A DNA stretch of 64,000 nt, taken from NCBI GenBank assembly GCA_016932575.1, contig JAFGCO010000059.1, positions 2,975-66,974 of the forward strand. The letters are read 5' to 3'. Positions 2,422 through 62,843 of this stretch are shown piece by piece. A model generated the notes under the pieces. The model did not search any database. It had not been told where the DNA came from and saw only the letters and a list, made by a program, of their open reading frames with translations. The translations under genes were made by a program, and so were the position numbers. Numbering within the stretch: position 1 is the first letter of the stretch; each line of letters opens with the position of its first letter. This DNA comes from a bacterium (GTDB lineage: Bacteria; Zhuqueibacterota; QNDG01; JAFGCO01).

Positions 2422-2570
2422 AATCTTCCGGCAAGCGACTGATTTTAAAGATTTATTTCATGCGTGTAACACATTCCAGGCAGCCTGCCATTATCATTTG
2501 CATCAGTTTTGAATATTTGACTGGTACCGCAGGATTAAGGCCAATTTATATTAAAAAAGGAGCTCTGATC

Positions 2571-3929: not shown

Positions 3930-4039
3930 CAGGTTGGGGAACATGTATCTCCGGGATGCCTTATGCACCTCTCCTGAAGGAAAGCCGTTTATATGTCTAT
4001 ACAATTGAGAACAGCATTTTTGGCAAAGGAGATGATTTG

Positions 4040-6019
4040 ATGAATTTTTGTAATAAACGATTTTTCAGCAGTCGGCCCGAAAAAAAACTTTCGATCCCGG
4101 CACAGCTTTTTCTTCCGATTACCGGTCTGCTTTCCGCCCTGTGGATGCTGCTGCGGATTATCCCCAAGCCCACGCGAGCCACCTATCCCTGCATGAAAGT
4201 CGCGGCTCCGCTGGCGAGCACGTTCATTGCGTATTCTGTGGGTATTCTCGTGTCCGCTTTTTCCATCAAAAAAGCCAGATCCGCCTTTCGGCGGAAACGG
4301 TTTCAACTGATGTTCGTGTGTTTGCTTGCGGTTGTGATATCAATCGGATGGATGACGCTCCAGCCGACTCAGGATATTCTGGCCGGTCATCAGGATACCG
4401 GATACTTTGAAGATCCCCTGGGGCCGAATCAGCCCATTGGCGAAGCCAGGGGAATTTATCCGGGCCGGGTAGTCTGGGTATACAATCCCGATGCGACCAA
4501 TGAACACTGTACTAATGCAAACCATGATGACGCCTATTTTCAGAAGCATAATACCGATCAGGCGGTTGTGGATCAGATGTTTTCCAGGGGCATTCTTGAA
4601 TTGACCGGCAAAGAAACACATGCCGAAGCCTGGAATGCCATATTCCGCTATTTTAATATAAATCAAGGAAAAGGGGACACTGGTTATCAGCCGGATGAAA
4701 CACTGTTCATTAAAATCAATGCAGTCACCGCCTATAATGGAGCAGAACCAGACGGAAAAATGTCCAGATATGTCTCCATTGAATTTGACACGTCTCCGCA
4801 AACCATACTGGCCATGCTGAGACAGCTGGTCAATGAAGCCGGTGTTCCCGAAGATAAAATTTATATCGGCGATCCCATGTGTGATATCTGGAATACGCTG
4901 TACGATAAATTTTATGCTGAATTTCCGAATATCAAGTATGTGTCACAGGGAAATGTAACCGGCAGATACAAGTTAAAACCCGATACCGATCCGGGTATTT
5001 ATTATTCGGATCAGGGAACCGTCATGGATCAAATCAAGAGCCACAATTTCTTTGTTGAAATGATGAATGCGGATTATCTGGTGAACATTCCTTCTATGAA
5101 GGGGCATCGCTGGGCGGGAGTCACATTTTTTGCCAAGAATCATTTCGGATCGAATACGGCCGACCATTCATGGGAATTGCATAAAGGCCTGATGAAACCG
5201 GATGATGATCCTTTAAGGTCCGGTTACCGTTTATATCGGGTTCTTGTGGATATTATGGCGGATAAAAATCTTGGAGGCAATACTCTGCTTTATTTTATGG
5301 ACGGCCTCTGGGCGACTTCTTATGAGCACCAAAAGCCCCAGAAATTTAAGTCTGCTCCGTTTAATAATGACTGGTGTTCGTCTCTTTTCTTTTCTCTGGA
5401 TCCTGTGGCTATTGAATCAGTCTGCCTGGATATTATGCAAAAGGAGTTTAAAGAAGAGGATATGTCTGTCAAACCGCCGCGTTACACATATGTTCAGTGG
5501 GAAGGGATTGATGATTATCTTCATCAGGCCGCAAGTGCCGAATGGTGGCCGGAGGGGATTATTTATGATCCTGATAAGACGGGTTCATCCATCGCGAGTC
5601 TGGGTACACATGAGCACTGGAACAATGAAACAGATATGCAGTATTCCCGGAATCTTGGTTCAGGTAATGGCATTGAACTGGTGAAACTTTTTCAAGCCAC
5701 GGTTGTGGAAAAACCACCGAAAATCGTGGACCATTACCGGTTGTCGGGAGCTTATCCCAATCCGTTTAATCCTCAAACGAACATTCGTTTTAAGCTGACT
5801 GAAAATGCTTTTGTGAGTTTGGCGATTTACAATATTCATGGCAGGAAAGTGCGTACCCTGGTGCAGGCAGAACAATCGGCCGGGACCCATGTGGCTGTAT
5901 GGAACGGTTGTGATGCAGGGGGACGATCATTGCCTTCCGGTGTATATCTGTACCGGTTTCAGATCCGGACGGGGGAAGTTACGGATATGAAATACGGGCA
6001 GATGGTGCTGATGAAGTAG
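4040..6019 (+). CDS. DUF362-like domain protein with N-terminal TM segment and T9SS type A C-terminal sorting domain
   Basis: DUF362-like blocks are present (LFIKINAVTA, PEDKIYIGDPM, IPSMKGHRWAGVTFFAKNHFGS). The C-terminus reads AYPNPFNPQTNIRFKL...GVYLYRF. AAGGAG lies 8 nt before the ATG at 4040. Confidence 0.6.
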   Translation: MNFCNKRFFSSRPEKKLSIPAQLFLPITGLLSALWMLLRIIPKPTRATYPCMKVAAPLASTFIAYSVGILVSAFSIKKARSAFRRKRFQLMFVCLLAVVISIGWMTLQPTQDILAGHQDTGYFEDPLGPNQPIGEARGIYPGRVVWVYNPDATNEHCTNANHDDAYFQKHNTDQAVVDQMFSRGILELTGKETHAEAWNAIFRYFNINQGKGDTGYQPDETLFIKINAVTAYNGAEPDGKMSRYVSIEFDTSPQTILAMLRQLVNEAGVPEDKIYIGDPMCDIWNTLYDKFYAEFPNIKYVSQGNVTGRYKLKPDTDPGIYYSDQGTVMDQIKSHNFFVEMMNADYLVNIPSMKGHRWAGVTFFAKNHFGSNTADHSWELHKGLMKPDDDPLRSGYRLYRVLVDIMADKNLGGNTLLYFMDGLWATSYEHQKPQKFKSAPFNNDWCSSLFFSLDPVAIESVCLDIMQKEFKEEDMSVKPPRYTYVQWEGIDDYLHQAASAEWWPEGIIYDPDKTGSSIASLGTHEHWNNETDMQYSRNLGSGNGIELVKLFQATVVEKPPKIVDHYRLSGAYPNPFNPQTNIRFKLTENAFVSLAIYNIHGRKVRTLVQAEQSAGTHVAVWNGCDAGGRSLPSGVYLYRFQIRTGEVTDMKYGQMVLMK

Positions 6020-10447: not shown

Positions 10448-11713
10448 TCAATCCATGGTATGAATAATTAAACCGCTTCTAAGTTTGGGTTCGAACCAGG
10501 TTGATTTTGGTGGCATCACCCGATTTGCATCTGCAACTGCCATAATTTGACTGATGCCTGTGGGGTGCATAGAAAATGCCACACGATATTGTCCGCTGTC
10601 TACCAGACGTTCCAATTCACCCAGTCCCCGAATGCCGCCAATAAAGTGGATACGATCATCATTGCGGGGATCCTGAATGCCCAGAATTGGCCCGAGTAAA
10701 TGATTTTGAAGGATAGATACATCCAATATAGCAACGGGATCCCCAGAATGTTTAACTGCATCTGTGGTTGTTACTTTGTACCACTGACCATCAATGTACA
10801 TACCGAACATGTGTTCTTTTTCAGGACGATACGCCTTCTCAAGCTTTCCATTGGGAGCAATGTATGGCGAGACAAGAAACTTTTCTGAAATTTTATTAAA
10901 AAATGTTTCTTTCGAGAATCCGTTCAGATCTTTGACGGCCCGGTTGTAATCCAGCACTTTCATATGGCTGTCAGGAAAAAGAACGGCCAGAAAGAAATTA
11001 TAGGATTCTTCTCCTGAATGGTCCGGATTGCGATTGCGATGAAAACGCATAACACGGGTTGCTGCCGCAGATCGGTGATGTCCATCAGCAATATACAAGG
11101 CGTCTACATTTTTAAATACTTCGATGATTTTTTGAATGAGTTCCGGATCAGAAATACGGTACAGTGTATGCTGAATGTTGTAATCGCATATCAGGTCATA
11201 GAGAGGATCACTGATACGCATGCCTTCTGCAATTAACCGATCAATGGCTTCGCGGGCATGGTACATAAAAATGACAGGACCGCAGTGTGCATTCATATAA
11301 AGAATGTGATGTGCCCGGTCGGATTCTTTGGCAGGCTTGGTGTGCTCATGTTTTTTAATTTTATGCTGAATGTAATCTTCCGATGATGTGGCTGCGACCA
11401 GACCGGCTTGTTCATGGTTTCCCATTTTCATCCGGTATATGTAGAAACAGGGTTTGTCTTCCTGAATCAATATGCCCTGCTTTACCAATTTTTGAAGATT
11501 ATTAACACCCTGATTGTAAACTGTTTTATCATAAACACTGGTACCCGGGGGCAGGTCGATTTCTGATTTAATAATATGTAAAAAACTAATGGGATTATTT
11601 TTTGCTTTTTCTTTCGCTTCTTCAGAATCAAGAACATCATAAGGAGGAGATGCTACTTGTGCCGCTTTTTCCGGTATGGGTCGCAATCCCCTGAATGGAC
11701 GTACAGTAATCAT
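10448..11713 (-). CDS. DUF1015 family protein
   Basis: The N-terminus MITVRPFRGLRPIPEKAAQVASPPYDVLDSEEAKE...NPISFLHI matches the characteristic DUF1015 N-terminal block, and the size (about 420 aa) fits. Confidence 0.8.
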   Translation of the reverse strand: MITVRPFRGLRPIPEKAAQVASPPYDVLDSEEAKEKAKNNPISFLHIIKSEIDLPPGTSVYDKTVYNQGVNNLQKLVKQGILIQEDKPCFYIYRMKMGNHEQAGLVAATSSEDYIQHKIKKHEHTKPAKESDRAHHILYMNAHCGPVIFMYHAREAIDRLIAEGMRISDPLYDLICDYNIQHTLYRISDPELIQKIIEVFKNVDALYIADGHHRSAAATRVMRFHRNRNPDHSGEESYNFFLAVLFPDSHMKVLDYNRAVKDLNGFSKETFFNKISEKFLVSPYIAPNGKLEKAYRPEKEHMFGMYIDGQWYKVTTTDAVKHSGDPVAILDVSILQNHLLGPILGIQDPRNDDRIHFIGGIRGLGELERLVDSGQYRVAFSMHPTGISQIMAVADANRVMPPKSTWFEPKLRSGLIIHTMD

Positions 11714-16285: not shown

Positions 16286-18064
16286 TTATTTAAGCAGAAG
16301 GATTTTTTTCTGATCCTGCCAGTGTTCGGTTTCCAGACGGACAAGATAAAGACCGGATTGTAGACGCTTGCCCAGATCGTCTGCTGCTTTCCAGATAACC
16401 GTATGATGCCCGGCCTCAACGGAATATTGATCGATGCGTCCTACCCGGCGGCCCGCTGCGTCGAATACGGTGAGTCGGATATCCGATGGCCGGTCCAGAA
16501 TAAATTGAATGCGTGTGGTGCTGTTGAACGGATTTGGATAATTTTGTGAGAGCCCGAATTGCTCTGGTGATGCGATTTCATTAATTTTTGACAGGTCGAT
16601 TTCTTCTGAACGGGCTGTAAGGTTGACTGAAGACAAGAGCTGACCATAGAGTGTTTCCGCGAAAGTCTGATTCTGGTTGGCCCCCAATAAATATGAGGTA
16701 AAGCTGAAATCCAGATTGACCGGTTTGTCATGCCGGGTATTAAAAAAGCGAAGCCCGCTGTCACCATATGAAATGTAATCTCCGGAATCATCGGCTATCA
16801 GAATATCCTGATCGGCCTGTCCGCCGTCCTGATTATCAAAATAATACAAAGACACATCATCCCAGTTGGATTCGGCAAAATCGAACAGGTTAAACATGGT
16901 TCCCTGGTTTCCTGTGGCCATGGTCCAGACCCGAAGGCGCTCTCCTGTTGTTATATCAACTTCTGTATTTATCTGATCTGTCTGACCATCGATGGATACC
17001 TCGCTGTTATGCGGATTGAAAAATTTCATTCCCGTTGCGTTCTCATTGAAATCCCATGATTGCCGTAAATAGTCGACTTCGATCACCAGCTGCATGGACG
17101 GTTCATCCAGGGCTTCCCGGATACTGTCCGGATCGAGTACTGTTCCGCCTTCAGATGTCCCGGAGAATGGATAATTTTTCGTGGTAATATAAAATTCTGC
17201 TCCTTCCAGAGGGGCACCGAGCCCAATGCCCATCCGCACTTCACGAATGATTCTGACCACAGGCTGGTCCGTGTAGGCGAGGTAGGTGTCATTATCAAAC
17301 TGCATTAAAATCTGTTCTGTGGCACTGTTGGCATCATCCCGGCCCCATGTCAACTGAAGGCCCGACCAGTCAACATACCCATTTAATCGTAATTTCTGTG
17401 TATCAAAAATATCCTGGCCGGATCCATAAGGGGGCCTGATCAGAATATCTGATATGAGTCCGTCTTGCTGATTGATTGTCATGGAATAGGCCAGGCTTTG
17501 AACGGTATGGGTTCCCGGATCGAATTGCATGGCGTACCTGTCGGCCACATCCGCGGGCATAACCAGCGTGCCCGACCTGTAGATATAGGCGTAAGCGCTT
17601 TCACCACTCAGCGGATCCGTGATTTCAAGCTCACACCTGTGGTTTGCCCTGGCTTCCGCATTATCGATCCAATCATGATCAGGGGCCTTGTCCCCCAAAT
17701 CCCGGATCATAAATACCAGTTCATCATCGCCGTCGAAGCCCGGCAGTGTATCAGGCTGGACATAATCCGGATTTATATTGGCGATGATATAAAAATGGCG
17801 CTCCCGTTCATTTTCGCCTTTTGCCAGGTCCGGGTCGGGTAATTTGGCCCGTTCGTCGATCTGGAACGGGATCATGGCCCAGGCGCCTTCCCGGTATGCG
17901 TAGACAAATATTTCATTCACCGGAATGCCCTTCACAGGCTGGATGTCCGAACCGAGAATAACCATTGGTTCATATGGCCGGTCTTCATAAGGTTTACCGC
18001 TGTATAAGATTCCTGCCGTCAGGAACAGAAGCAGGCTCTGACAGATTCGGATGGATACTTTCAT
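16286..18064 (-). CDS. hypothetical secreted protein with T9SS type A C-terminal sorting domain
   Basis: Signal peptide present. The C-terminus reads QNYPNPFNSTTRIQFIL...GLYLVRLE...K. First gene of a three-gene co-directional set. Confidence 0.65.
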   Translation of the reverse strand: MKVSIRICQSLLLFLTAGILYSGKPYEDRPYEPMVILGSDIQPVKGIPVNEIFVYAYREGAWAMIPFQIDERAKLPDPDLAKGENERERHFYIIANINPDYVQPDTLPGFDGDDELVFMIRDLGDKAPDHDWIDNAEARANHRCELEITDPLSGESAYAYIYRSGTLVMPADVADRYAMQFDPGTHTVQSLAYSMTINQQDGLISDILIRPPYGSGQDIFDTQKLRLNGYVDWSGLQLTWGRDDANSATEQILMQFDNDTYLAYTDQPVVRIIREVRMGIGLGAPLEGAEFYITTKNYPFSGTSEGGTVLDPDSIREALDEPSMQLVIEVDYLRQSWDFNENATGMKFFNPHNSEVSIDGQTDQINTEVDITTGERLRVWTMATGNQGTMFNLFDFAESNWDDVSLYYFDNQDGGQADQDILIADDSGDYISYGDSGLRFFNTRHDKPVNLDFSFTSYLLGANQNQTFAETLYGQLLSSVNLTARSEEIDLSKINEIASPEQFGLSQNYPNPFNSTTRIQFILDRPSDIRLTVFDAAGRRVGRIDQYSVEAGHHTVIWKAADDLGKRLQSGLYLVRLETEHWQDQKKILLLK

Positions 18065-32918: not shown

Positions 32919-32924
32919 ACGGGA

Positions 32925-50851: not shown

Positions 50852-51920
50852 GAAAGAAAATGCCTGGCTACCGAAAAATCTCCTGAACTGCAATACGGCA
50901 CAGATGAACGAACCATTGTCGGATGTGTGGCAACGGCCATGGCGATGACCATGTACTATTGGAAGTGGCCCGAGTCGGGAACCGGAAATGCATGCACAAC
51001 CTGCCATTTCAGAAGAGGAATCGGCTGGGTTGAAAAAGTATGCGGAACAGATCCGAAAATTCCTGCTGATTATCCCTGGGTGGTAAGCAGCGTCACCCGA
51101 CTTGAATGGATCCCGAAGGACGGCGGTATTTTAAGAATGCGGGGGTACTGGGATGAAAGCCTCTATGAAGAAGCTCAGGAGATCAGTAACAACAGCGATT
51201 TTCTGTCGGCCCTGGGAGACTGCTGGAACAGTCTGACCATCGGATCATCCCCGGAGGATGTCACCTTTGGTGAAACCTATGAATGGGATCAGATGACAGA
51301 AACCCGGGATACTCCCGGCGGAGACGACATGGCCAAAATCAGTTATCATGCGGCTGTTGCAGCGAATATGAATTTTGGAGTCAAAGCTTCAGGTGCCAGT
51401 ATGTTGGAATGCCGGAATGCTCTGGTGAATCATTTTCGATCATTCGAATGCGAATTGGGATGCATCCGTGAATTTCGAGATCATGCGTGAAGAGATTCAG
51501 TGGCTGCGTCCTGTGATCATTAGCCGGGAAAGACCCGACGGAGCCGGACAGGCCTGGATCATTCATGGATATAAAGAAGGCAGTGATCAGTTTCTGATGA
51601 ATTTCGGGCACACAGGAGATGGTGACGGCTGATACACTTATGATAATATTACCTTTGTGAATAAGGAATTTAATGACGAACAGGAGTATGTTCATAAAAT
51701 TGCTCCTGAAGAAACAATCGGTTTTTTCGGAGGATCGTCGGGCGGAACCGGCTCGCCCGACAATCCCGACTGGAATATTGAAAAAGCCATTGACAAAGCA
51801 GACGAGGGAGAAACCCTGATTTTCAGGGCCGGATCCGTCAATACCTTTTCTTCCGATTATCCTGAAATTTTAAAATTGCTGACACTCAAAGGCTGCAATG
51901 TCACCATTCAAAAGGAATAG
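50852..51920 (+). pseudogene. decayed peptidase C10 (streptopain-like) gene remnant
   Basis: A catalytic-Cys block GCVATAMA lies only about 25 codons after the frame opens, with no signal or pro-region. The frame shifts from 2 to 0 near the T-run at 51433-51436. An in-frame TGA at 51630-51632 sits where family members have Trp (DG*YTYDNI). The catalytic-His position reads GQAWIIHGY. Confidence 0.55.
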
Positions 51921-51950
51921 TCATTCATATTTGAATCAGGAGAAGCAATC

Positions 51951-52518
51951 ATGTTAAAATATAAAAACATAGCGACCGTTTGTAGTGTGATATTGGTCAA
52001 TTTGTCGCTGTCCGCTCATTTGAACAGCCAGACTTACTGTATCAGATCATCGGTGATCAGCTGCGGCGGGATTCATAAGACATCTTTAAACTATCAAAGT
52101 AGCAACTCATTGGGAGTTACAGCAGCCATTGGTTTGTCACAGGATCCTTCCACGACCCTTCTGGCAGGCTTTCAGGAAACCTGCATTCTCCTTCTGACCA
52201 CGTCGTTTCATGAATCCGGTTATCAGATTGGGGATAATATGCCGACGGAATTCAGGCCAGAATTTTCCAAATCCTTTTAATCCGCTGACACAAATACAAT
52301 ATGCGATTTCGGAGCCGGTTCATGTGATACTCACTGTTTACAACGCCCTGGGCCGGGAGATAGGCAAACTTGTGGATGAAAAACAAATTCCGGGATTCTA
52401 TACGGTCAACTGGGATGGAAATGGTCAGGGCAGTCGACATTTTGACAGCAGCCTCTATTTCTATCGTTTGCAGGCGGGTCAATTTGCTGCCATTCGGAAG
52501 ATGATATTGATCAAGTAA
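51951..52518 (+). pseudogene. small T9SS type A cargo gene interrupted by a +1 frameshift
   Basis: ORF 51951..52280 (signal peptide) reads ...PTEFR and then runs out of frame. QNFPNPFNPLTQIQYAI... continues in the +1 frame from 52258 to 52518. A single extra nucleotide near 52257 explains the break. Confidence 0.5.
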
Positions 52519-52956: not shown

Positions 52957-55407
52957 ATGAAAAGAATAACTCTGTTTTTTATACCGCTTCTTCTACTACT
53001 ATTTATTCTTGTGCTTGCTCAGGTCGTTCCGGTTCCCACAACATTAAATGATTTTTTTCTGCCAGGATCCCAGCCAGGCCAGTCCGGCAATACGGAACTG
53101 CCGGACAAATGCGACAATTGTCATGGCGGATATGATCTCTCAGTCGAACCCTCTTTCAACTGGCGCGGCGGCATGATGTCCCAGGCAGCCCGCGATCCCT
53201 TCTATTATGCCTGCATGGCCATTGCCAATCAGGACGCGCCCGAAAGCGGAGATCTCTGTATCCGGTGTCACTCACCGCGTGGCTGGCTTGACGGGCGTTC
53301 CACGCCTACAGACGGATCCGCGTTAACCAGCGGTGACCGTGAAGGGGTTCACTGCGGCTTCTGCCATAAAATGGTGATGACATCCCCCCTGGGTGAAAAT
53401 CCTTTTCCTGAAGATTCGGTGTATACAGCAGATACCTATTCTGAGGATCAGGCCTATCTGGCAGATTTGAGCCATATTCCGGGCACAACGGCAAACGGTA
53501 TGTTTATCAATTCTGATGAGGGAGCGAAAAGAGGTCCGTTTGTTGATGCGGTTGCCAGGCATCAGATGTATTATTCCCCGCTGCATCAAACGTCGGATCT
53601 TTGCGGTACCTGTCACGATGTCAGCAATCCGGTGTATGAGCGGACGGTCTTAAATACCTATGTGCCGAATGATTTTGACAGCATGGCTTCTAATTTTGAT
53701 CCTTACACAATGTTTCCGGTCGAGAGAACCTACAGTGAATGGCTGAAGAGTGCCTACAATTCTCCAGAGGGTGTGTATGCTCCGCAGTTCGGCGGAAATA
53801 AAGCTTATGTTTCCACCTGCCAGGACTGCCATTTAAGGGATGTAACCGGAGCAGGCGCCAATAAAAAGGATGTGCCGATCCGGAACGATCTGCCTCTGCA
53901 TGATATGACAGGCGGCAATACATTTATTGCAAAATTGATCGATCAGCTCTATCCCGGTGAAAGTGATACGGCCGCATTAAATCAGGGAATCGGGCGGGCC
54001 CGTTCCATGCTGGAGCTGGCCGCTTTTATGGAAGTCAACATGGATGGCAAGGTTGTGACTGTGAAGGTGACCAATCAGACGGGGCACAAACTGCCTTCAG
54101 GATATCCAGAGGGCCGCAGAATATGGATCCATCTGACGGCGTTGAACAACAGCGGTGTTTTTTACGAATCAGGCGCATATAACTTTCTGACTGCGGATTT
54201 GATTCACGACCCGGATATCAAGATTTATGAAATCAAGCCGGGGATATCGAAATCCCTGTCTCCTGTTGTTAATTTTCCAGCCGGGCCGTCGTTTCATTTT
54301 GTTTTGAACGATACGATTTATAAAGACAACCGTATTCCCCCCCGTGGGTTCAGCAATACAAGTTTTGAAGATATCCAGTCTCCGCCCGTCGGTTATGCCT
54401 ATGCGGACGGTCAATATTGGGATGAAACCGTCTATATCCTGGATCAGGTGCCCACCAAAGTGGAAGCCACACTTTATTATCAGACGACAAGCAAAGAATA
54501 TGTGGAATTTTTAAGAGATGAGAATCATACAAATGACTGGGGGCTCACATTTTACGGATTGTGGGAAGACCATGGAATGTCTGAGCCTGTCATCATGCAA
54601 AGTGCCAGTCAGACTTTGAATGGATTTATTGACACGGAAGCGGCTGTCGGCGGCAGCCTGGTTTTATTCAACGAAGGCGATGTGGATCCCGGAGACGGAC
54701 ACACTGTTGAAATGACGTTTAACAGTCTTTCCGGCAGCGGCGATATCACGGTGCTGCAGCTCAATCAGGCACCGGCAAATCCACCTGAACTCCCTTATAT
54801 CGAAGTCGCCTGGAATATTTCAAAATCCGCAGGTATCGATGCGTTTTCATCCGATGCCGTTTTTCATTACACGGATGAAGATATTTCAGGGATGAATGAA
54901 AGCAAGCTCAGGGTTTATTTCTGGAATGGTACGGCCTGGCAATATATGGGGGGGACTGTAAATCAGGCCGATAATGAGGTTGCTGTTTCCCTGTCTCTGA
55001 CCGGTGATTTTGCTTTATTTGAAACGGATGAAGTGCTGCTGGCCTGCAAAGTGTTTATGGAAGGTCCTTATCAGGCAGGGACTGGGATGCGAACCCTTTT
55101 ACAGGAGGCAGGCTGGATACCCATAACATCTCCCTATTCAGACAACAGGGTGGTGGCCCGCGTTCCCAGTCAAATCACAGACTGGGTATTTGTGGAACTC
55201 AGAAGCACAGCCAATGGCACCCTGGTGGCGGGCCGATCATTTTTCCTGAGAAATGACGGGATCGTTACGGATGACAATGGTATAACGACCGATTTATCCA
55301 TCCCCGGCGTTTCAGACGGATATTATTATATTGTGATGCATCACCGGAACCACCTGTCCCTGATGAGTGCTTCATCACGGTACCTGACTGGCATCAGCTC
55401 ACCCTGA
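52957..55407 (+). CDS. secreted penta-haem c-type cytochrome with large non-haem region and unclassified C-terminal domain
   Basis: Signal peptide present. There are five CxxCH motifs: CDNCH at 53110, CIRCH at 53257, CGFCH at 53353, CGTCH at 53602 and CQDCH at 53818. AGGAG RBS. Confidence 0.8.
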   Translation: MKRITLFFIPLLLLLFILVLAQVVPVPTTLNDFFLPGSQPGQSGNTELPDKCDNCHGGYDLSVEPSFNWRGGMMSQAARDPFYYACMAIANQDAPESGDLCIRCHSPRGWLDGRSTPTDGSALTSGDREGVHCGFCHKMVMTSPLGENPFPEDSVYTADTYSEDQAYLADLSHIPGTTANGMFINSDEGAKRGPFVDAVARHQMYYSPLHQTSDLCGTCHDVSNPVYERTVLNTYVPNDFDSMASNFDPYTMFPVERTYSEWLKSAYNSPEGVYAPQFGGNKAYVSTCQDCHLRDVTGAGANKKDVPIRNDLPLHDMTGGNTFIAKLIDQLYPGESDTAALNQGIGRARSMLELAAFMEVNMDGKVVTVKVTNQTGHKLPSGYPEGRRIWIHLTALNNSGVFYESGAYNFLTADLIHDPDIKIYEIKPGISKSLSPVVNFPAGPSFHFVLNDTIYKDNRIPPRGFSNTSFEDIQSPPVGYAYADGQYWDETVYILDQVPTKVEATLYYQTTSKEYVEFLRDENHTNDWGLTFYGLWEDHGMSEPVIMQSASQTLNGFIDTEAAVGGSLVLFNEGDVDPGDGHTVEMTFNSLSGSGDITVLQLNQAPANPPELPYIEVAWNISKSAGIDAFSSDAVFHYTDEDISGMNESKLRVYFWNGTAWQYMGGTVNQADNEVAVSLSLTGDFALFETDEVLLACKVFMEGPYQAGTGMRTLLQEAGWIPITSPYSDNRVVARVPSQITDWVFVELRSTANGTLVAGRSFFLRNDGIVTDDNGITTDLSIPGVSDGYYYIVMHHRNHLSLMSASSRYLTGISSP
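55036..55404 (+). other. shared C-terminal domain, copy A (EGPY...DWVFVELR...YYIVMHHRNHLSLMS)
   Basis: Last 123 aa of the cytochrome. Aligns with copies B and C. Confidence 0.8.
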
Positions 55408-55587
55408 CCAGATTGTCCGATTCTCAGTTCATTGATGTAGATATAGCCCCCGCCTCCCCATCAACATCAAAGATGTGGGAAGAAAGTTGAGGGCGATGTT
55501 TTGCATAAATGTGATTATATATTGAACCGTTCGATCCATCCGAATTTTTTTGCGAAGATTTCTCGAATGCCAGGAATATAATCTCCA

Positions 55588-55623
55588 CCAAAAAGAGAGG
55601 CCCGCCAGAATGACTGGCGGGCC
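55588..55623 (-). terminator. GC-rich hairpin terminator between the convergent cytochrome and OM-barrel genes
   Basis: ggcccgccag pairs with ctggcgggcc around the loop aatga. On the minus strand it is followed by CTCTCTTTTTGG. Confidence 0.5.
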
Positions 55624-55768
55624 TGCCTATAAAAAAATTAATCGATAATTTGAAATAGTGATACTGAAAATTGCACACCTTTTAGGGCAATGACTCTAAA
55701 TCACTGCCCCTGACGGTGGTTCTTGATTAAATAGAAATCCTCGCATGATTCAACATTTCGATAAAATT

Positions 55769-56431
55769 TTACAGCGCGATTTGAATGCCGATTTTGGGTT
55801 CAAAACAGAAAATAAGATCCGTTTCATCGGCTTCATCTTTATCAGCAATGAACGTGGCATTCAACTGACAGTCAAGTAACAACATGTCGGTGATTGAAAT
55901 CAAGCCTCCCCATCCGGTATAAAAGGCTACGCACGGATCCCATTCTTTTGTTGCAACAGATTCTTTTTCCACGGTGATTTCAGTATCCCCTTGGGAGAGC
56001 CGGTATCCTGCTCCTGCACGAATGTAATATTTATTTAATGCGTCAGGCGTCAGAACGAACCGACCGCCAATCATAATCATCTGAGAACTTCCGGCATCGA
56101 AATTAATGTCTTTTTGACTTTCCTTTGGCACCCCTTTATTGACTGAGAATTTTATATTGCGCTCAAGATCATTGTCGATTCTCAATATTGAGTATCGATA
56201 CTCCAATTCAATTTGAATGCTGTTTAAAGCACTGTATATCAAGTTGGCCCCAAGACCGAAACTCGGATCAAAGTATGCGTTTTGGGTTGTTTCATATTCC
56301 GGAACCAGATATGAAACGCTCAGACCGGTGATGATTTTGGGCATTTCCGATGAAAATAATTGTGTGCTCATACCCAGAAAAATTAGCAGACATACAATAA
56401 TCATCAATCCGGATAATGATTTTTTTTTCAT
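55769..56431 (-). CDS. small outer-membrane beta-barrel protein (220 aa)
   Basis: Signal peptide and alternating hydrophobic/aromatic beta-strand pattern (YRYS, YIRAGAGYRL, FYTGWGG). The family is not resolved. Confidence 0.5.
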   Translation of the reverse strand: MKKKSLSGLMIIVCLLIFLGMSTQLFSSEMPKIITGLSVSYLVPEYETTQNAYFDPSFGLGANLIYSALNSIQIELEYRYSILRIDNDLERNIKFSVNKGVPKESQKDINFDAGSSQMIMIGGRFVLTPDALNKYYIRAGAGYRLSQGDTEITVEKESVATKEWDPCVAFYTGWGGLISITDMLLLDCQLNATFIADKDEADETDLIFCFEPKIGIQIAL

Positions 56432-56647
56432 TTCTCTGCTCCTTGTATTTTAATTTTATTGAATGAAAAGTTTTATAAAATTAATTATTCTTGATTTTAA
56501 TGTCAAGCCAAATATCAATGATTCGATGCGGCAAATATTTCCCGTATGGAGGATAGGCTTGTATTTTAATGGCTGGCTGATTTTGGTATTTTTTTTGCTC
56601 AGTTATCAATATTTGTATGATGCGTTTAATTTTTCGGTTTTTTTTCA

Positions 56648-59600
56648 ATGAAAACAAGATGTTTCTGTGTGTCTGTTTTAATTGTCTTTTTCAATGCACG
56701 GACGGTTATTGCCCGGGGAACCCTGACTTTTGACCATTCCGAAGTGGCTGATTTATGCGCGCAGGGAAAGGCGCTGGGAGATATCAACGGAGACGGCATG
56801 CCGGATGTCATTATTGCCGAAGGAGAATTCAGCCCGGGAGCGTTCGCCTGGTACAAGTATCCCAACTGGGAAAAATATGATATCCATGCGGTCGCATTTT
56901 CCGAAATGGATTATGTGCCGGACTGCCAGGTGGCGGATATGGACAATGACGGGGATCTCGATATCATTGTGCCCAACAGCCACAACAGCGCGAACAAGAG
57001 CCTGTGGTGGTTTGAAAATCCCCTGAATGACGGCGGCAACCCTGAAACGGACGGATTTACCCGGCATGTGGTCTGGTCCGCATCGGACAGCCATATCAAG
57101 GATGTGTCCGTGGCCGATTTTGACCAAGACGGCAAACCGGATATTGTGCTTCGTTTTACCTCCAAAGCGGCGGTGTTTTTTCAGAATTCAGCGGACAACT
57201 GGACCCAGGTCTCCTGGAGCATCGGGGGATCCGAAGGTATGGGAACCGGGGATATCGACTGGGACGGAGATACGGATGTGATTACCAATGGTGTGTTCTA
57301 TCAGAATCCCGGGAACCGGGTCGATTCATGGACGCAGAAAACCATCGGTTCATACGCGCAGAGCACCGCCTGCCGTGTGCAGGCGGCAGACATTAACGGA
57401 GACGGGCATGAGGAACCGGTTTTCAGCAGTTCCGAATACGCCGGATATGCAGTTTCGTGGTATTCCGCAGCGGATCCTGAAAACGGTCCCTGGACCGAGC
57501 ATGTGATCGGATATGTTGACTATTGTCATACCCTGCAAACCGGGGATGTGGACCGGGACGGAGATATCGATGTCGTGGGCGGTTCCATGCCTTCGGCGAG
57601 CACGGATGAAGTGGTTCTTTTTGAAAACACAGGAAACGGCAATACGTGGACACGTCATACGGTGGATTCCAAGTCAACCTATATTGCCAAGATGGCAGAT
57701 ATGGGCGCTGACGGCGATCTGGACATAGTGGGGAGCCGGAGCTATGATGTCGCGCCGATTGATTTTTTTGAGAATCAGCTCGACCCGGTTCTGCCGCTGG
57801 ATCAGTGGCAATATATTCAGGCGGATAACACCAGAATGGCCCAGGCTTTCGGGCTGGATATGGATGACGTGACCGGTGATGATTTTCTGGATATCGCATC
57901 CGGTCCCTATTTCTACCGGAATCCGGGCGGAAATATGACGTCGGCGTGGACCCGCATGAATCTGCCGAACAGTGTGGATGCGGTACTGATCACGGATCTG
58001 GACGATGACGCCTTTGGCGATATTGTCGCTCAAAAGACTGTGGATGACGCGCTGCATTTCTATTGGCTTGAAGCCGGAGATGCGCAGGGAAGCAGCTGGA
58101 CACAGATGGCTGATATCGGTTCCGTGCCCCAGGCCAGTCATACGCTTGGATCCCAGGGGCATCGCATGGTACAGATCGAATCCGGGGGAAAATATGAAAT
58201 TGTGGTCACCAGCGGCAACGGTCTGTATTATTTTGAAATTCCGGCAAGTCCGGAGGCCGGTTCCTGGCCCTTGACCCATGTCCACAGCAATCCCACGGAC
58301 GAGGGATTTGGTGCAGGTGATATCGACGGTGACGGAGATCAGGATCTGGCCTGCGGCACCGGATCCACCAAACGCGTGGAATGGTATGAAAATCCCGGAG
58401 ACGGCTCCCCGTCATGGACCGCCTATCATATTGGCGACATGACGGAATCGGTATGGACCGACCGGTTTGCTGTCGCAGATATGAACGGGGACAATAAGCC
58501 GGACATTATCGGCACGGAGGAGAACGGAGCCAGCACAGGCGCGGAAACCTACTGGTGGGAACAGCCGGAAGATCCCACGTCGGGCGGCTGGACACGGCAT
58601 CTGGTCGTGTCGCAGGCGACAACCAATTCCATGGATGCAGCGGATATGGATCATGACGGGGACACGGATATCATTTTGGGAGAGCATCGCGGTACGGAAA
58701 AGCTGTCTGTCTGGGAAAATGACGGAACGGGATCATTTACTGAAAATGGAGTGGATGATGGCAAGGAAAGCCATCTGGGCGCAAAAACCGCTGATCTTGA
58801 CAGTGATGGCGATCCGGATATTGTCAGCATTGCCTGGGATGATTATTCTTATCTTCATATATGGCGGAACGATGCGATCCAGAGCGGCATGCAGACGGTT
58901 GCTGCTCCGGATATCTCTCCAGACGGCGGGTCTTTTACCGGCTCCGTTTCAGTCACGCTTTCCACTGCCACCTCCGGTGCAGCGATTTATTATACCACAG
59001 ACGGGACAGATCCGGAAGATTTCTCAACCGAATATTCAGGCGCGTTCACTGTATCCCAGAGTCTGACAGTCAAAGCCAGGGCCTATAAAAGCGGAATGAA
59101 TGCGAGCAGCATTACGTCTGCCGCATTTACTATTGAACAGGATGCGACACCGCCCGAAATCAATTCAGTGTCCGCGAGCGGAAATCCCAATCGTGTTCAA
59201 ATCGGTTTCAATGAAGATCTGGATGCATCCACCTCAGAAACAGCCGCCAATTACACTATTGATTCGGGCATCTCTGTTACCCTGGCCGAATTATCCGTGG
59301 ATAAAAGGAATGTTTTTCTGGCAACATCCATACTTTCTCCGGATATCACATATACACTTACCGTGAATGATGTGGAAGATAGTCATGGCAATCCCATCTC
59401 GCCGGATACGCAGGAGACCTTTCAGTATATCCCTGTAAATCTGGGAGAGGGCCTTGCTGCCTGTTATTCTTTGGATGAGATTTCGGGAACAGCGGTCCAT
59501 GACCAGTCCGGCAATGGTCATGACGGTACCCTGCATGGCGGTCAGTGGTCCTCCGGACATATTGATAATGCTGTTGATTTCGACGGCACCGATGACTACA

Positions 59601-60451
59601 TTGATTTAGCCACGCTTGATATCAGCGGCGGTGCGCTGACCCTGGTCTGCTGGTTTTATGCAGATGATTTTGGCAACGAAGATGCACGATTCGTCTCCAA
59701 AGCCACAGGCGTCTATGAAAATGACCATTACTGGATGCTGAGCACCACAGGCAGCAGCGGACAGTACAGGCTGCGGTTCCGGTTAAAAACGGAAGGGTCC
59801 ACCTCGACTCTGATCGCATCGTCCGGCAATCTGCCTCTCCAAACCTGGACGCACGCGGCTGCTGTTTATAACGGTTCTGAAATGATACTTTATATGAACG
59901 GCTCTGAAGTGGGATCCCTGGGAAAGACAGGCGCATTGAGTACGGATTCTGAAGTGTCCGCCTGGATCGGCAGTAATCCGCCGGCTGTGGGAAGCAATGC
60001 ATTCGACGGCAGGATCGACGAGGTCCGGATTTACAACCGCGCACTGTCAGAGACCGAGATTACGGCTTTGAGCACCTGCCCGGTCAAGGTCAATCTCAAA
60101 CTTTACCTGGAAGGCCCTTATCAGCCGGGTGAAGGCCAGATGTCCGCTTCCCTGAACACCGGAGAGCATTTGCCTTTGACATCGCCTTATCCGGAAAATC
60201 AGCGCTCTGTTTTATCCATACCCGGGACCATCGTGGACTGGGTGCTGGTTCAGCTTCGAACCGGTGAGGAGGGCCCGACGGTTGTATCCAAAAGCGTATT
60301 GCTTCGAATGGACGGATGTATTGTCTCTGACAACGGCACAACCGAATCCGTCACTTTGAATGTACCGGAGGGTTCTTATTATATCGTGGTCAATCACCGG
60401 AATCATCTGTCTGTGATGAGCGATGAGACAGTAGAATTAAGCGCTGATTGA
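56648..60451 (+). CDS. giant secreted FG-GAP/VCBS-repeat protein with chitobiase-C-like, Ig-like and LamG modules and the shared C-terminal domain
   Basis: More than 10 DxDxDGxxD FG-GAP-type loops are present (DINGDGMPDV, DMDNDGDLDI, DFDQDGKPDI and others). AIYYTTDGTDP marks the chitobiase-C-like module. The LamG-like module reads GNGHDGTL...VDFDGTDDYI...FDGRIDEVRIYNRALS. Confidence 0.8.
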   Translation: MKTRCFCVSVLIVFFNARTVIARGTLTFDHSEVADLCAQGKALGDINGDGMPDVIIAEGEFSPGAFAWYKYPNWEKYDIHAVAFSEMDYVPDCQVADMDNDGDLDIIVPNSHNSANKSLWWFENPLNDGGNPETDGFTRHVVWSASDSHIKDVSVADFDQDGKPDIVLRFTSKAAVFFQNSADNWTQVSWSIGGSEGMGTGDIDWDGDTDVITNGVFYQNPGNRVDSWTQKTIGSYAQSTACRVQAADINGDGHEEPVFSSSEYAGYAVSWYSAADPENGPWTEHVIGYVDYCHTLQTGDVDRDGDIDVVGGSMPSASTDEVVLFENTGNGNTWTRHTVDSKSTYIAKMADMGADGDLDIVGSRSYDVAPIDFFENQLDPVLPLDQWQYIQADNTRMAQAFGLDMDDVTGDDFLDIASGPYFYRNPGGNMTSAWTRMNLPNSVDAVLITDLDDDAFGDIVAQKTVDDALHFYWLEAGDAQGSSWTQMADIGSVPQASHTLGSQGHRMVQIESGGKYEIVVTSGNGLYYFEIPASPEAGSWPLTHVHSNPTDEGFGAGDIDGDGDQDLACGTGSTKRVEWYENPGDGSPSWTAYHIGDMTESVWTDRFAVADMNGDNKPDIIGTEENGASTGAETYWWEQPEDPTSGGWTRHLVVSQATTNSMDAADMDHDGDTDIILGEHRGTEKLSVWENDGTGSFTENGVDDGKESHLGAKTADLDSDGDPDIVSIAWDDYSYLHIWRNDAIQSGMQTVAAPDISPDGGSFTGSVSVTLSTATSGAAIYYTTDGTDPEDFSTEYSGAFTVSQSLTVKARAYKSGMNASSITSAAFTIEQDATPPEINSVSASGNPNRVQIGFNEDLDASTSETAANYTIDSGISVTLAELSVDKRNVFLATSILSPDITYTLTVNDVEDSHGNPISPDTQETFQYIPVNLGEGLAACYSLDEISGTAVHDQSGNGHDGTLHGGQWSSGHIDNAVDFDGTDDYIDLATLDISGGALTLVCWFYADDFGNEDARFVSKATGVYENDHYWMLSTTGSSGQYRLRFRLKTEGSTSTLIASSGNLPLQTWTHAAAVYNGSEMILYMNGSEVGSLGKTGALSTDSEVSAWIGSNPPAVGSNAFDGRIDEVRIYNRALSETEITALSTCPVKVNLKLYLEGPYQPGEGQMSASLNTGEHLPLTSPYPENQRSVLSIPGTIVDWVLVQLRTGEEGPTVVSKSVLLRMDGCIVSDNGTTESVTLNVPEGSYYIVVNHRNHLSVMSDETVELSAD
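60083..60448 (+). other. shared C-terminal domain, copy B (EGPY...DWVLVQLR...YYIVVNHRNHLSVMS)
   Basis: Last 122 aa of the FG-GAP/LamG protein. Confidence 0.8.
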
Positions 60452-60548
60452 GGAATTTTCTGTATCGGTCAGGTTTTTTTTTAAACAATGGAATTCTGGA
60501 TGGGGAATATGTTGTCCAAATTTAAATCATCGATATGAGAACGTCACA

Positions 60549-62843
60549 ATGATCCGATTATGCTGGTTCCAAATTTTCTTGTTTGGCATGGCAGTCACGA
60601 TTTACCCGCAAAGCGTGAAAACCATTGAACAGCCTGAAATCAATCCGGATTTTATAGAGTGGCTGGATAAAGATGCAGAAAGCCTTTCAGACGAAGGGCT
60701 AGGTCTGGGGTATCTGCCGCATCCCTGCCAATTGCATAGAGAATTGCCGGGGCCTCTCATGAGCCGGACATTCGGTCTGGAATCCCTGCCATCTGTTTTC
60801 GATCTGCGAATCACAGGGGACATCACCTCAGTCAAGAATCAGGGCAGCTGCGGTTCATGCTGGGCGTTTGCCACCATGTCGGCGGTTGAATCTCACTGGA
60901 AAATGAACGACCGGGGGATCTTTGATCTTTCAGAAGACAATCTGAATACCTGTCATCCGCCCTTTGTATGGCTCCCCTGTCAGGGAGGGAATGATTTAAT
61001 ATCACTGGCTTATTTTGCGAGGGGATCGGGTCCGATGTCTGAGAGCGACGATCCTTACAGTCCGAATCACAAAAAGGTGGACTGTCCATCCGGTTTATAC
61101 CCGGCGGGTTTTGTTACCTCGGGCTGGTTTATTCCCACAAACGATCCCGCGCTTATTAAAAGTCTCATTATGCAATACGGCGCGTTATTTACTTCGATGT
61201 ACTGGTCGTCCTCTTATTTTAATTATTCCAGCAAGACCTATTATTACAGCGGGACTGCTTCTCCCAACCATGGCGTCGCGCTTGCGGGCTGGGATGACAA
61301 CAAAATTACGGCCGGGGGCACCGGCGCCTGGATCGTGAAGAACAGCTGGGGAGCCGGCTGGGGGGAAGGCGGTTATTTTTATATTGCCTACCAGGACAGC
61401 CGGGTGAATTCGGATGTGACTTTGTTCAGCGGTTATATGGAAGAAGATCCGATGAATGCGGTTGATACCTATTCTGAATCGGGCTGGTCAGGCTATAATA
61501 TGGGATACGGCAGCAATGCGGCGGACGGTCTTGTGAAGTTTGTTGCTTCCGGAAACCTTCAATTAACAAAAATAGGAACATGGACCGGGTATCCCGGGGC
61601 TGTGGTCTCGATCGATATTTATGATGACTTTAACGGCACAGATTTATTGACCGGATTTTTGTGCTCCCTGTCTCCCCAGACGTGCACCTATGCGGGATAC
61701 CATACGTTTGAACTTCCCTCACCCGTCACTATTGCAGACGGGAACGATTATTATATTAAAATCCGATATGAAACAGCAGGGTACAATTATCCGGTGCCCA
61801 TTGAAGTGGTGATCGGCGGCTATTGCACTCCCTCCATCGAAACCGGTATATTCTGGTCAAAAACCACAGGATCCGCATACTGGAATTCAGAAGATTTAAG
61901 TGATAATGATCCGTGTGTCTATACATACACAAGTGCTGTTCTGGGCACAGTGGCAACGCCTTCGTTCGATCCGGAACCGGGAACCTACATGACTCCTCAA
62001 CTGGTGACGATTCAGTGTGTCACGCCTGATGCAGCCGTCTATTATACAACAAATGGCACGGATCCCACCGAAAGCGACAGCCTGTATGAAAATCCCGTTG
62101 TTGTCGATTCGACCCTGACATTAAAAGCCAGATCATTTAAGTCCCATTACCTTCCGAGCGAAACAGCTGCAGGCACATACACGATACCACCGCCGGTAAT
62201 CACAGTCACTTCACCCAACGGGGATGAAGAGTGGGAAACAGGGAGCCCTTACGATGTCCTGTGGACATCGACCGGAACCAGTGGAAATGTGCGCATTGAA
62301 TATTCTGCGAACAGCGGATCAGACTGGTCGGATGTGATATCGGGCACACCAGATGACGGCATCTATTCATGGATGGTCCCGGATACATCCTCGGGCAATT
62401 GCCTGGTGAGGATTTCCGATACAGAAGGAAGCCCGGTCGATACGAGCGATGGGGTGTTTACAATTTCAAACATTCCGTCGGTTCTGGTGCAAATCAAAAT
62501 CTGGATAGAAGGTCCTTATTCTTCGTCCGGAGACAGCATGACCACATCGCTTCAGACCGGAACCATCATTCCGAAAATATCTCCGTACAGCGACGGCCGT
62601 GAGGTGGACAGTATTCCGTCCGATATCACGGACTGGGTTTTTGTGGAGCTCAGAAGCACGGTAGAGGGTGACGCCGTGGTATCCGGATCGTTTTTCTTAA
62701 GGAAGGACGGATGGATCACAGAGATTGACGGTTTTAACACGAATCTGGAATTTGACAACGTTGAAGACGGACTGTATTATATTGTTGTCCGCCACCGCAA
62801 TCATCTCTCACTGATGAGCAGCGAACCGGTGCAGATGGAGTGA
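60549..62843 (+). CDS. secreted papain-family (C1) cysteine peptidase with chitobiase-C-like and beta-sandwich modules and the shared C-terminal domain
   Basis: Catalytic motifs are NQGSCGSCWAF (Cys), NHGVALAGWDD (His) and WIVKNSWGAGWGEGGYFYIAY (Asn). AVYYTTNGTDP marks the chitobiase-C-like module. Confidence 0.85.
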   Translation: MIRLCWFQIFLFGMAVTIYPQSVKTIEQPEINPDFIEWLDKDAESLSDEGLGLGYLPHPCQLHRELPGPLMSRTFGLESLPSVFDLRITGDITSVKNQGSCGSCWAFATMSAVESHWKMNDRGIFDLSEDNLNTCHPPFVWLPCQGGNDLISLAYFARGSGPMSESDDPYSPNHKKVDCPSGLYPAGFVTSGWFIPTNDPALIKSLIMQYGALFTSMYWSSSYFNYSSKTYYYSGTASPNHGVALAGWDDNKITAGGTGAWIVKNSWGAGWGEGGYFYIAYQDSRVNSDVTLFSGYMEEDPMNAVDTYSESGWSGYNMGYGSNAADGLVKFVASGNLQLTKIGTWTGYPGAVVSIDIYDDFNGTDLLTGFLCSLSPQTCTYAGYHTFELPSPVTIADGNDYYIKIRYETAGYNYPVPIEVVIGGYCTPSIETGIFWSKTTGSAYWNSEDLSDNDPCVYTYTSAVLGTVATPSFDPEPGTYMTPQLVTIQCVTPDAAVYYTTNGTDPTESDSLYENPVVVDSTLTLKARSFKSHYLPSETAAGTYTIPPPVITVTSPNGDEEWETGSPYDVLWTSTGTSGNVRIEYSANSGSDWSDVISGTPDDGIYSWMVPDTSSGNCLVRISDTEGSPVDTSDGVFTISNIPSVLVQIKIWIEGPYSSSGDSMTTSLQTGTIIPKISPYSDGREVDSIPSDITDWVFVELRSTVEGDAVVSGSFFLRKDGWITEIDGFNTNLEFDNVEDGLYYIVVRHRNHLSLMSSEPVQME
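62481..62840 (+). other. shared C-terminal domain, copy C (EGPY...DWVFVELR...YYIVVRHRNHLSLMS)
   Basis: Last 120 aa of the C1 peptidase. Confidence 0.8.

Follow-up and report, generated by a model that had tools for sequence, protein, structure and literature searches.

In a 64,000-nucleotide stretch of contig JAFGCO010000059.1 from a bacterium of the Zhuqueibacterota (assembly GCA_016932575.1; the whole stretch is called the window here), three adjacent genes encode proteins with different passengers but the same C-terminal domain of about 120 residues, hereafter the core. The question raised by this locus is whether the core directs its carriers to the cell surface or has another role. A sequence-only reading of the window had taken it for a modular C-terminal sorting or surface-anchoring tag defining a second class of cargo, beside the proteins that end in the type A tail of the T9SS (type IX secretion system). 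The core is a genuine, modular and unclassified domain on signal-peptide-bearing proteins of extracellular type; it is unrelated, by sequence and profile comparison, to T9SS type A, B or C tails, and in most of its relatives it is followed directly by a divergent dockerin. A function in binding or retention is more likely for it than one as a translocation signal. The reading favoured here, held with about even confidence, is that it constitutes the X-module-like half of a cohesin–dockerin-type surface-tethering system of bacteria of the FCB (Fibrobacteres–Chlorobi–Bacteroidetes) group, orphaned in the window.

A shared C-terminal domain outside the known families

The three open reading frames (ORFs) lie on the forward strand, and the product of each begins with a signal-peptide-like N-terminus and ends with a core that is not followed by a dockerin. 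ORF A (816 amino acids (aa); nucleotides (nt) 52957..55407) has a multihaem c-type cytochrome-like passenger with five CXXCH haem motifs and weak matches to multihaem cytochromes. ORF B (1267 aa; nt 56648..60451) combines an FG-GAP/VCBS propeller with CHB_HEX_C, Big_5 and LamG domains, and ORF C (764 aa; nt 60549..62843) a papain-family C1 peptidase with a lectin-like domain, a CHB_HEX_C domain and an Ig-like domain. The hidden Markov model (HMM) envelopes of the core cover aa 694-812 of ORF A (nt 55036..55392), whose stop lies 4 aa beyond, aa 1147-1266 of ORF B (nt 60086..60445) and aa 646-764 of ORF C (nt 62484..62840), whose terminus coincides with the end of the domain.

As the sequence-only reading had it, the passengers are unrelated and the last ~120 aa of the three proteins can be aligned end to end, with 45 invariant columns. 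Copies A and B share 42% identity, and copies A and C 51%, in agreement with the half that had been estimated by eye. Between the HRNHLS.MS motif and the stop lie 12 (A), 9 (B) and 7 (C) residues, where the sequence-only reading had given 8-13. A profile built mainly from homologs outside the window recovers the three copies with E values of 2e-47 to 3e-49, and a six-frame HMM scan of the 64 kb finds these three only. The nearly identical nucleotide block pointed out between the copies is present in A and C, where differences are confined to third codon positions, and its similarity is explained by the conserved ITDWVFVELRST motif that it encodes. Gene conversion between copies A and C was considered for this block and rejected, since the third-position differences fit the coding of a conserved motif.

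The core is characterized by the motif series LEGPY...TSPY...(I/V)(V/T)DWVxVELR...DG...G...YYIVxxHRNHL, with a strictly conserved polar and aromatic set formed by D-W, R and H-R-N-H. An AlphaFold2 model calculated from a 19-sequence alignment (predicted local distance difference test (pLDDT) of 90) displays a six-strand β-sandwich; the N-terminal ~45 residues, which carry the LEGPY and TSPY motifs, have little regular structure and wrap onto the sandwich. Results of a Foldseek search of the PDB with this model include no match at E≤1e-3, the best being Ole e 1, macroglobulin (MG)-domain and transthyretin-like sandwiches (E≥0.076, template-modelling (TM) score≤0.36). PDB sequences, searched with 3-sequence and 32-sequence profiles, give no match to the core either, the Cna-B-like chain 2kyw_A standing at an E value of about 1.

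Pfam-A and NCBIfam, including the models of T9SS types A, B and C, give nothing on the core even at E≤1. For type A (TIGR04183 / PF18962) no match at E≤1 is found on ORFs A, B and C, for type B (TIGR04131 / PF13585) no profile match on the three proteins, and for type C (NF033708, ChiA-like) no match on their C-terminal regions in the NCBIfam scan at E≤1; identical scans recover the four true type A tails of the window. The idea of a disguised T9SS tail was also rejected by hhalign: compared with 28 aligned type A sequences, the core alignments A3 and A10 reach probabilities of 0.5% and 0.8%. The sequence-only reading, which had called the domain unclassified and neither type A nor type B, is upheld on these points by the family and profile comparisons. 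Neither the core nor the two-gene cassette presented below is represented in Pfam 2025, NCBIfam 2026 or the PDB, and full-text literature searches retrieved no description of them; both appear to be undescribed.

Logan contig SRR13394437_369941 encodes a protein identical to ORF A, and further occurrences of ORF A and of the window gene 10448..11713 are confined to Logan contigs of SRR13394437. The PurQ protein of the window matches entries labelled just 'bacterium' at 74-85% identity, and its one match with a phylum name, KSB1, stands at 61%. Between ORF A and ORF B, a 220-aa, signal-peptide-bearing, β-rich ORF (55769..56431, reverse strand) is called on the Logan contig as well. As the only small ORF nearby, it was examined as a possible PorP-like helper and dismissed, since no Pfam family matches it and none of the 80 related loci contains a homolog.

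A dockerin-like extension and a cohesin-like neighbour

An exhaustive HMM search over 1.84 billion representative proteins, clustered at 50% identity, delimits a family of 10,961 clusters at E≤1e-3 (9,692 at E≤1e-10). Architectures were tabulated for the best 150 members and for 80 loci drawn from GTDB species genomes, with home-made HMMs for the annotation of extension and partner; separate homolog profile searches, which returned only proteins of ≤300 aa and missed the long proteins of the window, were kept out of these statistics. Single-copy proteins account for 134 of the best 150, of which 108 run on for ~92 residues beyond the core and 18 end within 20 residues of it, and 16 further proteins contain 2-5 core copies. 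Re-annotation with our own HMMs places an extension directly after the core in 154 of 185 proteins (long forms), short forms amounting to 30 of 185, and at the 80 loci the extension is present in 77 of 93 core-bearing ORFs, with a stop codon 0-5 residues past the core in 10.

Nearly all members examined have the core at their C-terminus or close to it, and it is non-terminal in about 83% of the copies examined. Units of core plus extension occur in tandem (three in P0037, five in P0038); P0021, P0024 and P0052 are stand-alone proteins of about 225 aa made of a signal peptide and one such dyad; and in P0154, the sole N-terminal case, the dyad sits right behind the signal peptide and is followed by FGE-sulfatase and Fib_succ_major domains. 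The expectation that the domain would always be C-terminal fails on these architectures, which include positions that the sequence-only reading had itself named as refuting it. Of the proposed modular C-terminal sorting or anchoring tag, what stands is the modular and unclassified nature of the domain, its presence on secreted proteins, its occurrence in T9SS-bearing FCB lineages and its near-exclusivity with the type A tail; its description as a C-terminal tag is not supported.

In its usual context the dyad forms the C-terminal end of enzymes and adhesins that are Sec-exported. Passenger diversity is high, with 80 Pfam families in 75 proteins, including LamG, FG-GAP, GDSL lipases, S8 and C10 peptidases, GH16+CBM96, β-helices and PKD. 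By a crude test, about 100 of 122 full-looking carriers have signal-peptide-like N-termini, and those without one look like truncated gene calls. Nearly all labelled carriers belong to T9SS-bearing lineages of the FCB group: Ignavibacteria/Melioribacteraceae, Bacteroidota (including cultured Aquimarina, Winogradskyella and Segetibacter), Calditrichia, KSB1, Cloacimonadota and Marinimicrobia. Four of the loci carry other labels, namely PVC (Planctomycetes–Verrucomicrobia–Chlamydiae), Cyanobacteria and Deferribacteres, on contigs of 3.3-6.6 kb that may be mis-binned, and Chlorobiaceae, on a 154-kb contig. Taxonomic range and passenger diversity had both been put forward as checks of the sequence-only reading, and both were carried out with the results given here.

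The extension, about 92 aa long, contains two Ca-loop/helix repeats and typically ends in ...QVP (consensus LYDFT..YG...GD.NG.G.I...D...W....GY...D.NL.G.V...D.N..W.N....QVP). A 31-sequence profile of it retrieves mainly dockerins from the PDB sequences, the best matches being a double-dockerin protease (E value of 1e-4) and 2vn5_B (2.6e-4), then 3ul4_B, 1daq, 2mte and 2b59_B. Eight of the 31 members match PF00404 (Dockerin_1) individually, with a best E value of 3.4e-7, and the extension of P0036 scores above the Pfam dockerin cutoff. Because its profile finds solved dockerins and its members match PF00404, the extension is, judged by sequence, a divergent dockerin. The common unit is thus a β-sandwich plus a dockerin, formally like the X-module–dockerin dyads of cellulosomes, a resemblance of layout rather than a demonstrated homology. 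A β-sandwich passing directly into a dockerin is found family-wide, in the proportions given above for the two data sets, and not in the window copies.

Many long-form genes have, 3-80 nt downstream and on the same strand, a neighbour whose product of 270-410 aa consists of a signal peptide, an N-domain of ~170 aa, an fn3-like domain ('LPVELTSFSA') and a T9SS tail of type A; 26 of 29 such downstream neighbours form one family. When scored with an HMM of the N-domain only, within 400 nt and on the same strand, this gene is next downstream of 26 of 69 long-form genes with room for it versus 0 of 13 short-form or other extension-less genes (Fisher p=0.007). An independent Marinimicrobia locus has the same pair, and the type A tail is present on 25 of the 36 ORFs with this N-domain. 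A relation of the partner to cohesins was sought by sequence with a PDB profile search, which was negative, and the lead came from the fold search alone: for an AlphaFold2 model of the N-domain (pLDDT of 87), Foldseek ranks cohesins and CBM3, a structural relative of theirs, highest, headed by 5lxv_C, a cohesin in a cohesin–dockerin complex (E value of 1.6e-3, probability of 1.0, TM score of 0.44), with 6kgf_C, 4ums, 4uyq_A, 2jh2, 2ccl_A and 5nrm_A among the others. The term 'cohesin-like' used here for this predicted fold stands for a supported lead, not a demonstration.

Fusions of N-domain, core and dockerin are seen in P0069, P0156, P0096, P0065, P0114, P0149 (~390 aa), P0045 and L028:4458-5849, and a fusion of cohesin-like domain and core without dockerin in L076:3023-3949. 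The recurrent small proteins that consist of a signal peptide and all three modules look like adaptors, which could in principle chain head to tail. Downstream of the core genes of Aquimarina sp. RZ0 (L043:5783-6595) and Winogradskyella psychrotolerans (L061:5834-6661) lie T9SS-tailed partners that diverge from those of the other phyla, and the extension of Flavobacteriia is divergent as well, being longer and ending in QQLP or EQLP. Extension and partner therein vary together, as expected of an interacting pair. In another group of cohesin-like proteins (P0190, P0198, P0201, P0207 and P0212), the type A tail is absent and the protein ends in a C-terminal region of ~70 aa with the pattern …TCPD…SG.YQA…AG.SV.L.P.F…G..F…I.GCQ. 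No PorP/SprF-like gene or other T9SS component is consistently adjacent to core genes in the loci examined.

The three window copies all belong to the dockerin-less short form, the rarer one in the family. The relationship between the two forms is illustrated by P0175 (1326 aa; loci L088, L089 and L090, from three other metagenomes), which is 71% identical to ORF B over an alignment of 1232 ungapped residues that includes the core and then runs into a dockerin-like extension of ~92 aa. Dockerin presence therefore varies between orthologs; the 98-nt spacer downstream of ORF B contains no remnant of an extension. The nearest relative is a long form for 19 of 35 short forms, and clusters of short forms recur: L045 has three adjacent ones, L018 two and the window three. 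They always end cleanly past the last strand of the domain, with all family motifs intact, those of the three window copies included, and no conserved neighbours of their genes are seen in 7 loci. Since short forms are scattered, clustered and complete in their motifs, the core is maintained on its own. Within the favoured reading, the short-form core of the window most likely still acts as a non-covalent binding or retention module.

Docking weighed against sorting

In the favoured tethering scheme, the T9SS would export the cohesin-like protein and fix it on the cell surface, and the dockerin of the enzyme would plug into it in a Ca-dependent manner. The core would act as an X-module that supports the dockerin and/or touches the receptor or the cell surface at a second point, and the window proteins would represent a recurrent dockerin-less variant in which the core alone has been kept and conserved. 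Both the cohesin-like fold of the receptor and any physical binding are what we infer here. In this scheme it is the receptor that has the type A tail, and not the enzyme. The link between the core and the secretion machinery is indirect, running through a type A-tailed cohesin-like protein that is either adjacent or fused, and docking is preferred to recognition by the translocon because the consistently adjacent gene is a T9SS cargo itself.

Type A tails are cleaved by PorU, and the cargo is linked to anionic lipopolysaccharide. In the window four such tails serve as comparators and are not members of the core family. They end a Reg_prop/PorZ-like protein (2418..3929; tail 3684..3929, forward strand; TIGR04183 score of 23.9 bits versus a cutoff of 23), a DUF362 protein (3956..6019; tail 5774..6019, forward), a protein encoded at 16286..18064 on the reverse strand (tail 16286..16540, reverse) and the final piece of a Peptidase_C10 gene whose frame is broken (50927..52518; tail 52210..52518, forward). 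All four exceed the TIGR04183 cutoff, in line with the count of the sequence-only reading, one of them on a gene fragment. The Peptidase_C10 (streptopain-like) gene is split over at least 3 frames (50927..51490, 51951..52280 and 52210..52518, forward). The same split gene is called in L081, a Logan contig of SRR13394437 that was assembled independently, and because of this repetition the split is probably a real pseudogene or a programmed shift and not an assembly error. The protein at 2418-3929 (forward) has a Reg_prop β-propeller with partial similarity to PorZ (75 bits versus a 260-bit cutoff) and may be a PorZ-like T9SS accessory protein. Given the four type A cargo genes and the PorZ-like propeller, the window organism clearly uses a T9SS. 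Elsewhere in the window (30486-38474, reverse), a bacterial α-2-macroglobulin (1849 aa) adjoins a PBP1C-type transglycosylase/transpeptidase (810 aa).

The mutual exclusivity claimed between the core and the type A tail holds within the window, where no protein has both, and almost holds across the family: the two occur together in 1 of the 278 core-bearing proteins and ORFs examined, namely P0043 (2130 aa), which has two core/dockerin dyads and a type A tail at its extreme C-terminus.

Several observations weigh against the tethering scheme. The architecture statistics on which it draws come from the best 150 of the 10,961 members and the 80 loci. The N-domain of the partner has no Pfam, NCBIfam or PDB-sequence match, and its Foldseek scores are marginal, none reaching E≤1e-3 or a TM score of 0.5. 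Among known X-modules none matches the core significantly in structure, the X-module–dockerin chain 4wi0_B ranking 24th in the Foldseek search with a TM score of 0.31. A downstream partner is undetected by the strict HMM in 43 of 69 long-form genes, including the ortholog of ORF B, P0175, which is not followed by a cohesin-like gene. There is likewise no cohesin-like gene in the 64-kb window, and no remnant of an extension downstream of the three stops in any frame, nor across the window. That search also led to the rejection of the window ORFs as truncated genes. With neither dockerin, partner gene nor remnants there, the dyad model gives no direct answer to what the window copies bind. Tethering also does not explain how proteins without a known sorting signal cross the outer membrane, and near-exclusivity with type A tails is something that a sorting signal would also show.

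These last two points bring back the proposal that the core, alone or with its dockerin-like extension, is a new outer-membrane sorting signal, for the T9SS or another exporter, and defines a second cargo class. Signal peptides on about 100 of 122 carriers, passengers that are of extracellular type and highly diverse, and a module that in nearly all members lies at the C-terminus or close to it agree with it. So do the FCB hosts, with a type A cargo gene in 47 of the 80 loci (each of about 10 kb or less), the single co-occurrence with a type A tail, Peptidase_C10 passengers that carry either the core or a type A tail, and a small β-sandwich of a size similar to the C-terminal domains (CTDs) of T9SS cargo. 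T9SS signals are already known to be heterogeneous in addition, with types A, B and C (PMC10202324). We nevertheless consider a sorting signal unlikely: the core is not terminal in most copies, occurs in tandem, N-terminal and stand-alone arrangements and, in P0043, in dyads together with a type A tail; neither sequence nor profile comparison relates it to types A, B or C; and no T9SS component is consistently adjacent to it, the adjacent gene being itself a T9SS cargo. A further reading, in two versions, is more doubtful, and we would give it only a small chance. In its attractive piggyback version, the dyad or core proteins would have no signal of their own for the outer membrane; the dockerin, perhaps with the core, would bind the cohesin-like protein in the periplasm, and the type A tail of the latter would take the folded complex through the wide translocon and then anchor it; in its other version, the core would be a fourth, dockerin-independent sorting class, which would account for the three dockerin-less proteins of the window. 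Either, if true, would be a new cargo-selection principle for the T9SS; a keyword check of the same review finds no mention of piggyback or hitchhiking export (PMC10202324).

Two further explanations were weighed; like tethering and sorting, they do not account for the passage of such proteins across the outer membrane. The core might be a module like a carbohydrate-binding module (CBM), or one for another small ligand, that targets a substrate or the cell's own surface glycan independently of the dockerin. Its β-sandwich with weak prealbumin, Cna-B and MG-domain-like similarity, the D-W, R and H-R-N-H set typical of a binding site, its attachment to hydrolases and lectin-type passengers and its retention where the dockerin is lost would all suit such a function. 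However, no CBM family or solved structure matches the core in Pfam, PDB sequences or Foldseek, it also occurs on non-glycan proteins (cytochrome, peptidases, lipases), and the fixed spacing to a dockerin in about 83%, with the whole dyad repeated in tandem, speaks for a role inside the docking unit, so that this explanation too seems improbable. Alternatively, the window cores could be left-over structural or spacer domains without specific function after loss of the dockerin, a history that the dockerin of the ORF B ortholog, the scatter of short forms among long forms (consistent with repeated loss) and the lack of a partner gene near short forms would fit. It is hard to reconcile with three window copies in which every family motif is intact, with short forms that recur in several lineages, often clustered and cleanly ended, and with the gapless alignment of the ORF B and P0175 cores, and we regard it as very unlikely.

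Relation to known surface systems

The principle of dockerin, cohesin, X-module and T9SS anchoring is already known. In cellulosomes, the X-module supports the dockerin in type II/III X-module–dockerin (XDoc) dyads; among the structures mentioned here, 2b59 is the C. thermocellum CipA XDoc–SdbA cohesin complex and 4wi0 the A. cellulolyticus ScaA XDoc–ScaB cohesin complex. The long form of the family resembles these dyads in that secreted proteins end in a dockerin immediately preceded by a β-sandwich, in an extension whose profile matches 2b59_B, in a putative partner of predicted cohesin-like fold that would be fixed to the cell surface and in adaptor-like proteins with cohesin-like, X and dockerin modules. 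It differs from them in that the core has no detectable sequence similarity and no significant structural similarity to X-modules, the hosts are Gram-negative FCB bacteria, the receptor would be held by a T9SS type A tail and not by S-layer homology (SLH) domains or sortase, enzyme and receptor often form one-to-one two-gene cassettes, and the window copies lack a dockerin.

Compared with T9SS CTDs of types A, B and C, the core is likewise a C-terminal, β-sandwich-sized unit in the range of ~70-120 aa with diverse secreted passengers; it occurs in the phyla that have these CTDs and almost never shares a protein with type A. Unlike them, it gives no profile match, is usually non-terminal and exists in internal, N-terminal, tandem and stand-alone copies; the strictly terminal position of type A tails is shared by the three window copies and not by the family. 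T9SS reviews list type A, B and C signals only (PMC10202324). Type B cargo, according to Gorasia et al. (2022), is held by adjacent PorP-like proteins (PMC9143113). The present cassette would be similar in its logic, in that a cargo gene precedes a dedicated gene for surface holding. Here, however, the downstream gene encodes a soluble cohesin-like type A cargo and not an outer-membrane barrel, and the module on the cargo is unrelated to type B.

The closest precedent concerns Cloacimonadota: in Ca. Stygibacter (Williams et al. 2021), a cellulosome-like system was inferred from enzymes that bear dockerins and a cohesin scaffoldin whose T9SS CTD serves surface attachment (PMC8542988). An FCB host, dockerin enzymes with signal peptides and a T9SS-tailed protein, cohesin there and cohesin-like here, are common to both systems. 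In Ca. Stygibacter, dockerin and cohesin are canonical InterPro domains, the cohesins reside on one giant multi-cohesin scaffoldin, and neither the core nor two-gene cassettes are reported (PMC8542988), whereas in the family described here most dockerin and cohesin-like modules escape Pfam, and one cohesin-like domain per receptor is the usual number.

The family comprises about 11,000 clusters with neither a Pfam or NCBIfam name nor a solved relative, and thousands of so far 'hypothetical' C-termini on environmental hydrolases, peptidases and adhesins gain a testable role from the network of dockerin, cohesin-like receptor and T9SS tail. ORF B and P0175 provide a natural presence/absence pair for the contribution of the dockerin, and Aquimarina sp. 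RZ0 and Winogradskyella psychrotolerans are cultured carriers suitable for experiments. How enzymes without a sorting signal cross the outer membrane bears on the definition of T9SS cargo and on the prediction of secretomes from metagenomes, at present based exclusively on tails of types A, B and C. More broadly, placing the family in this network suggests that surface assembly of the cohesin–dockerin type is widespread among Gram-negative bacteria of the FCB group and is connected with the T9SS by way of the receptor, not through the enzyme.

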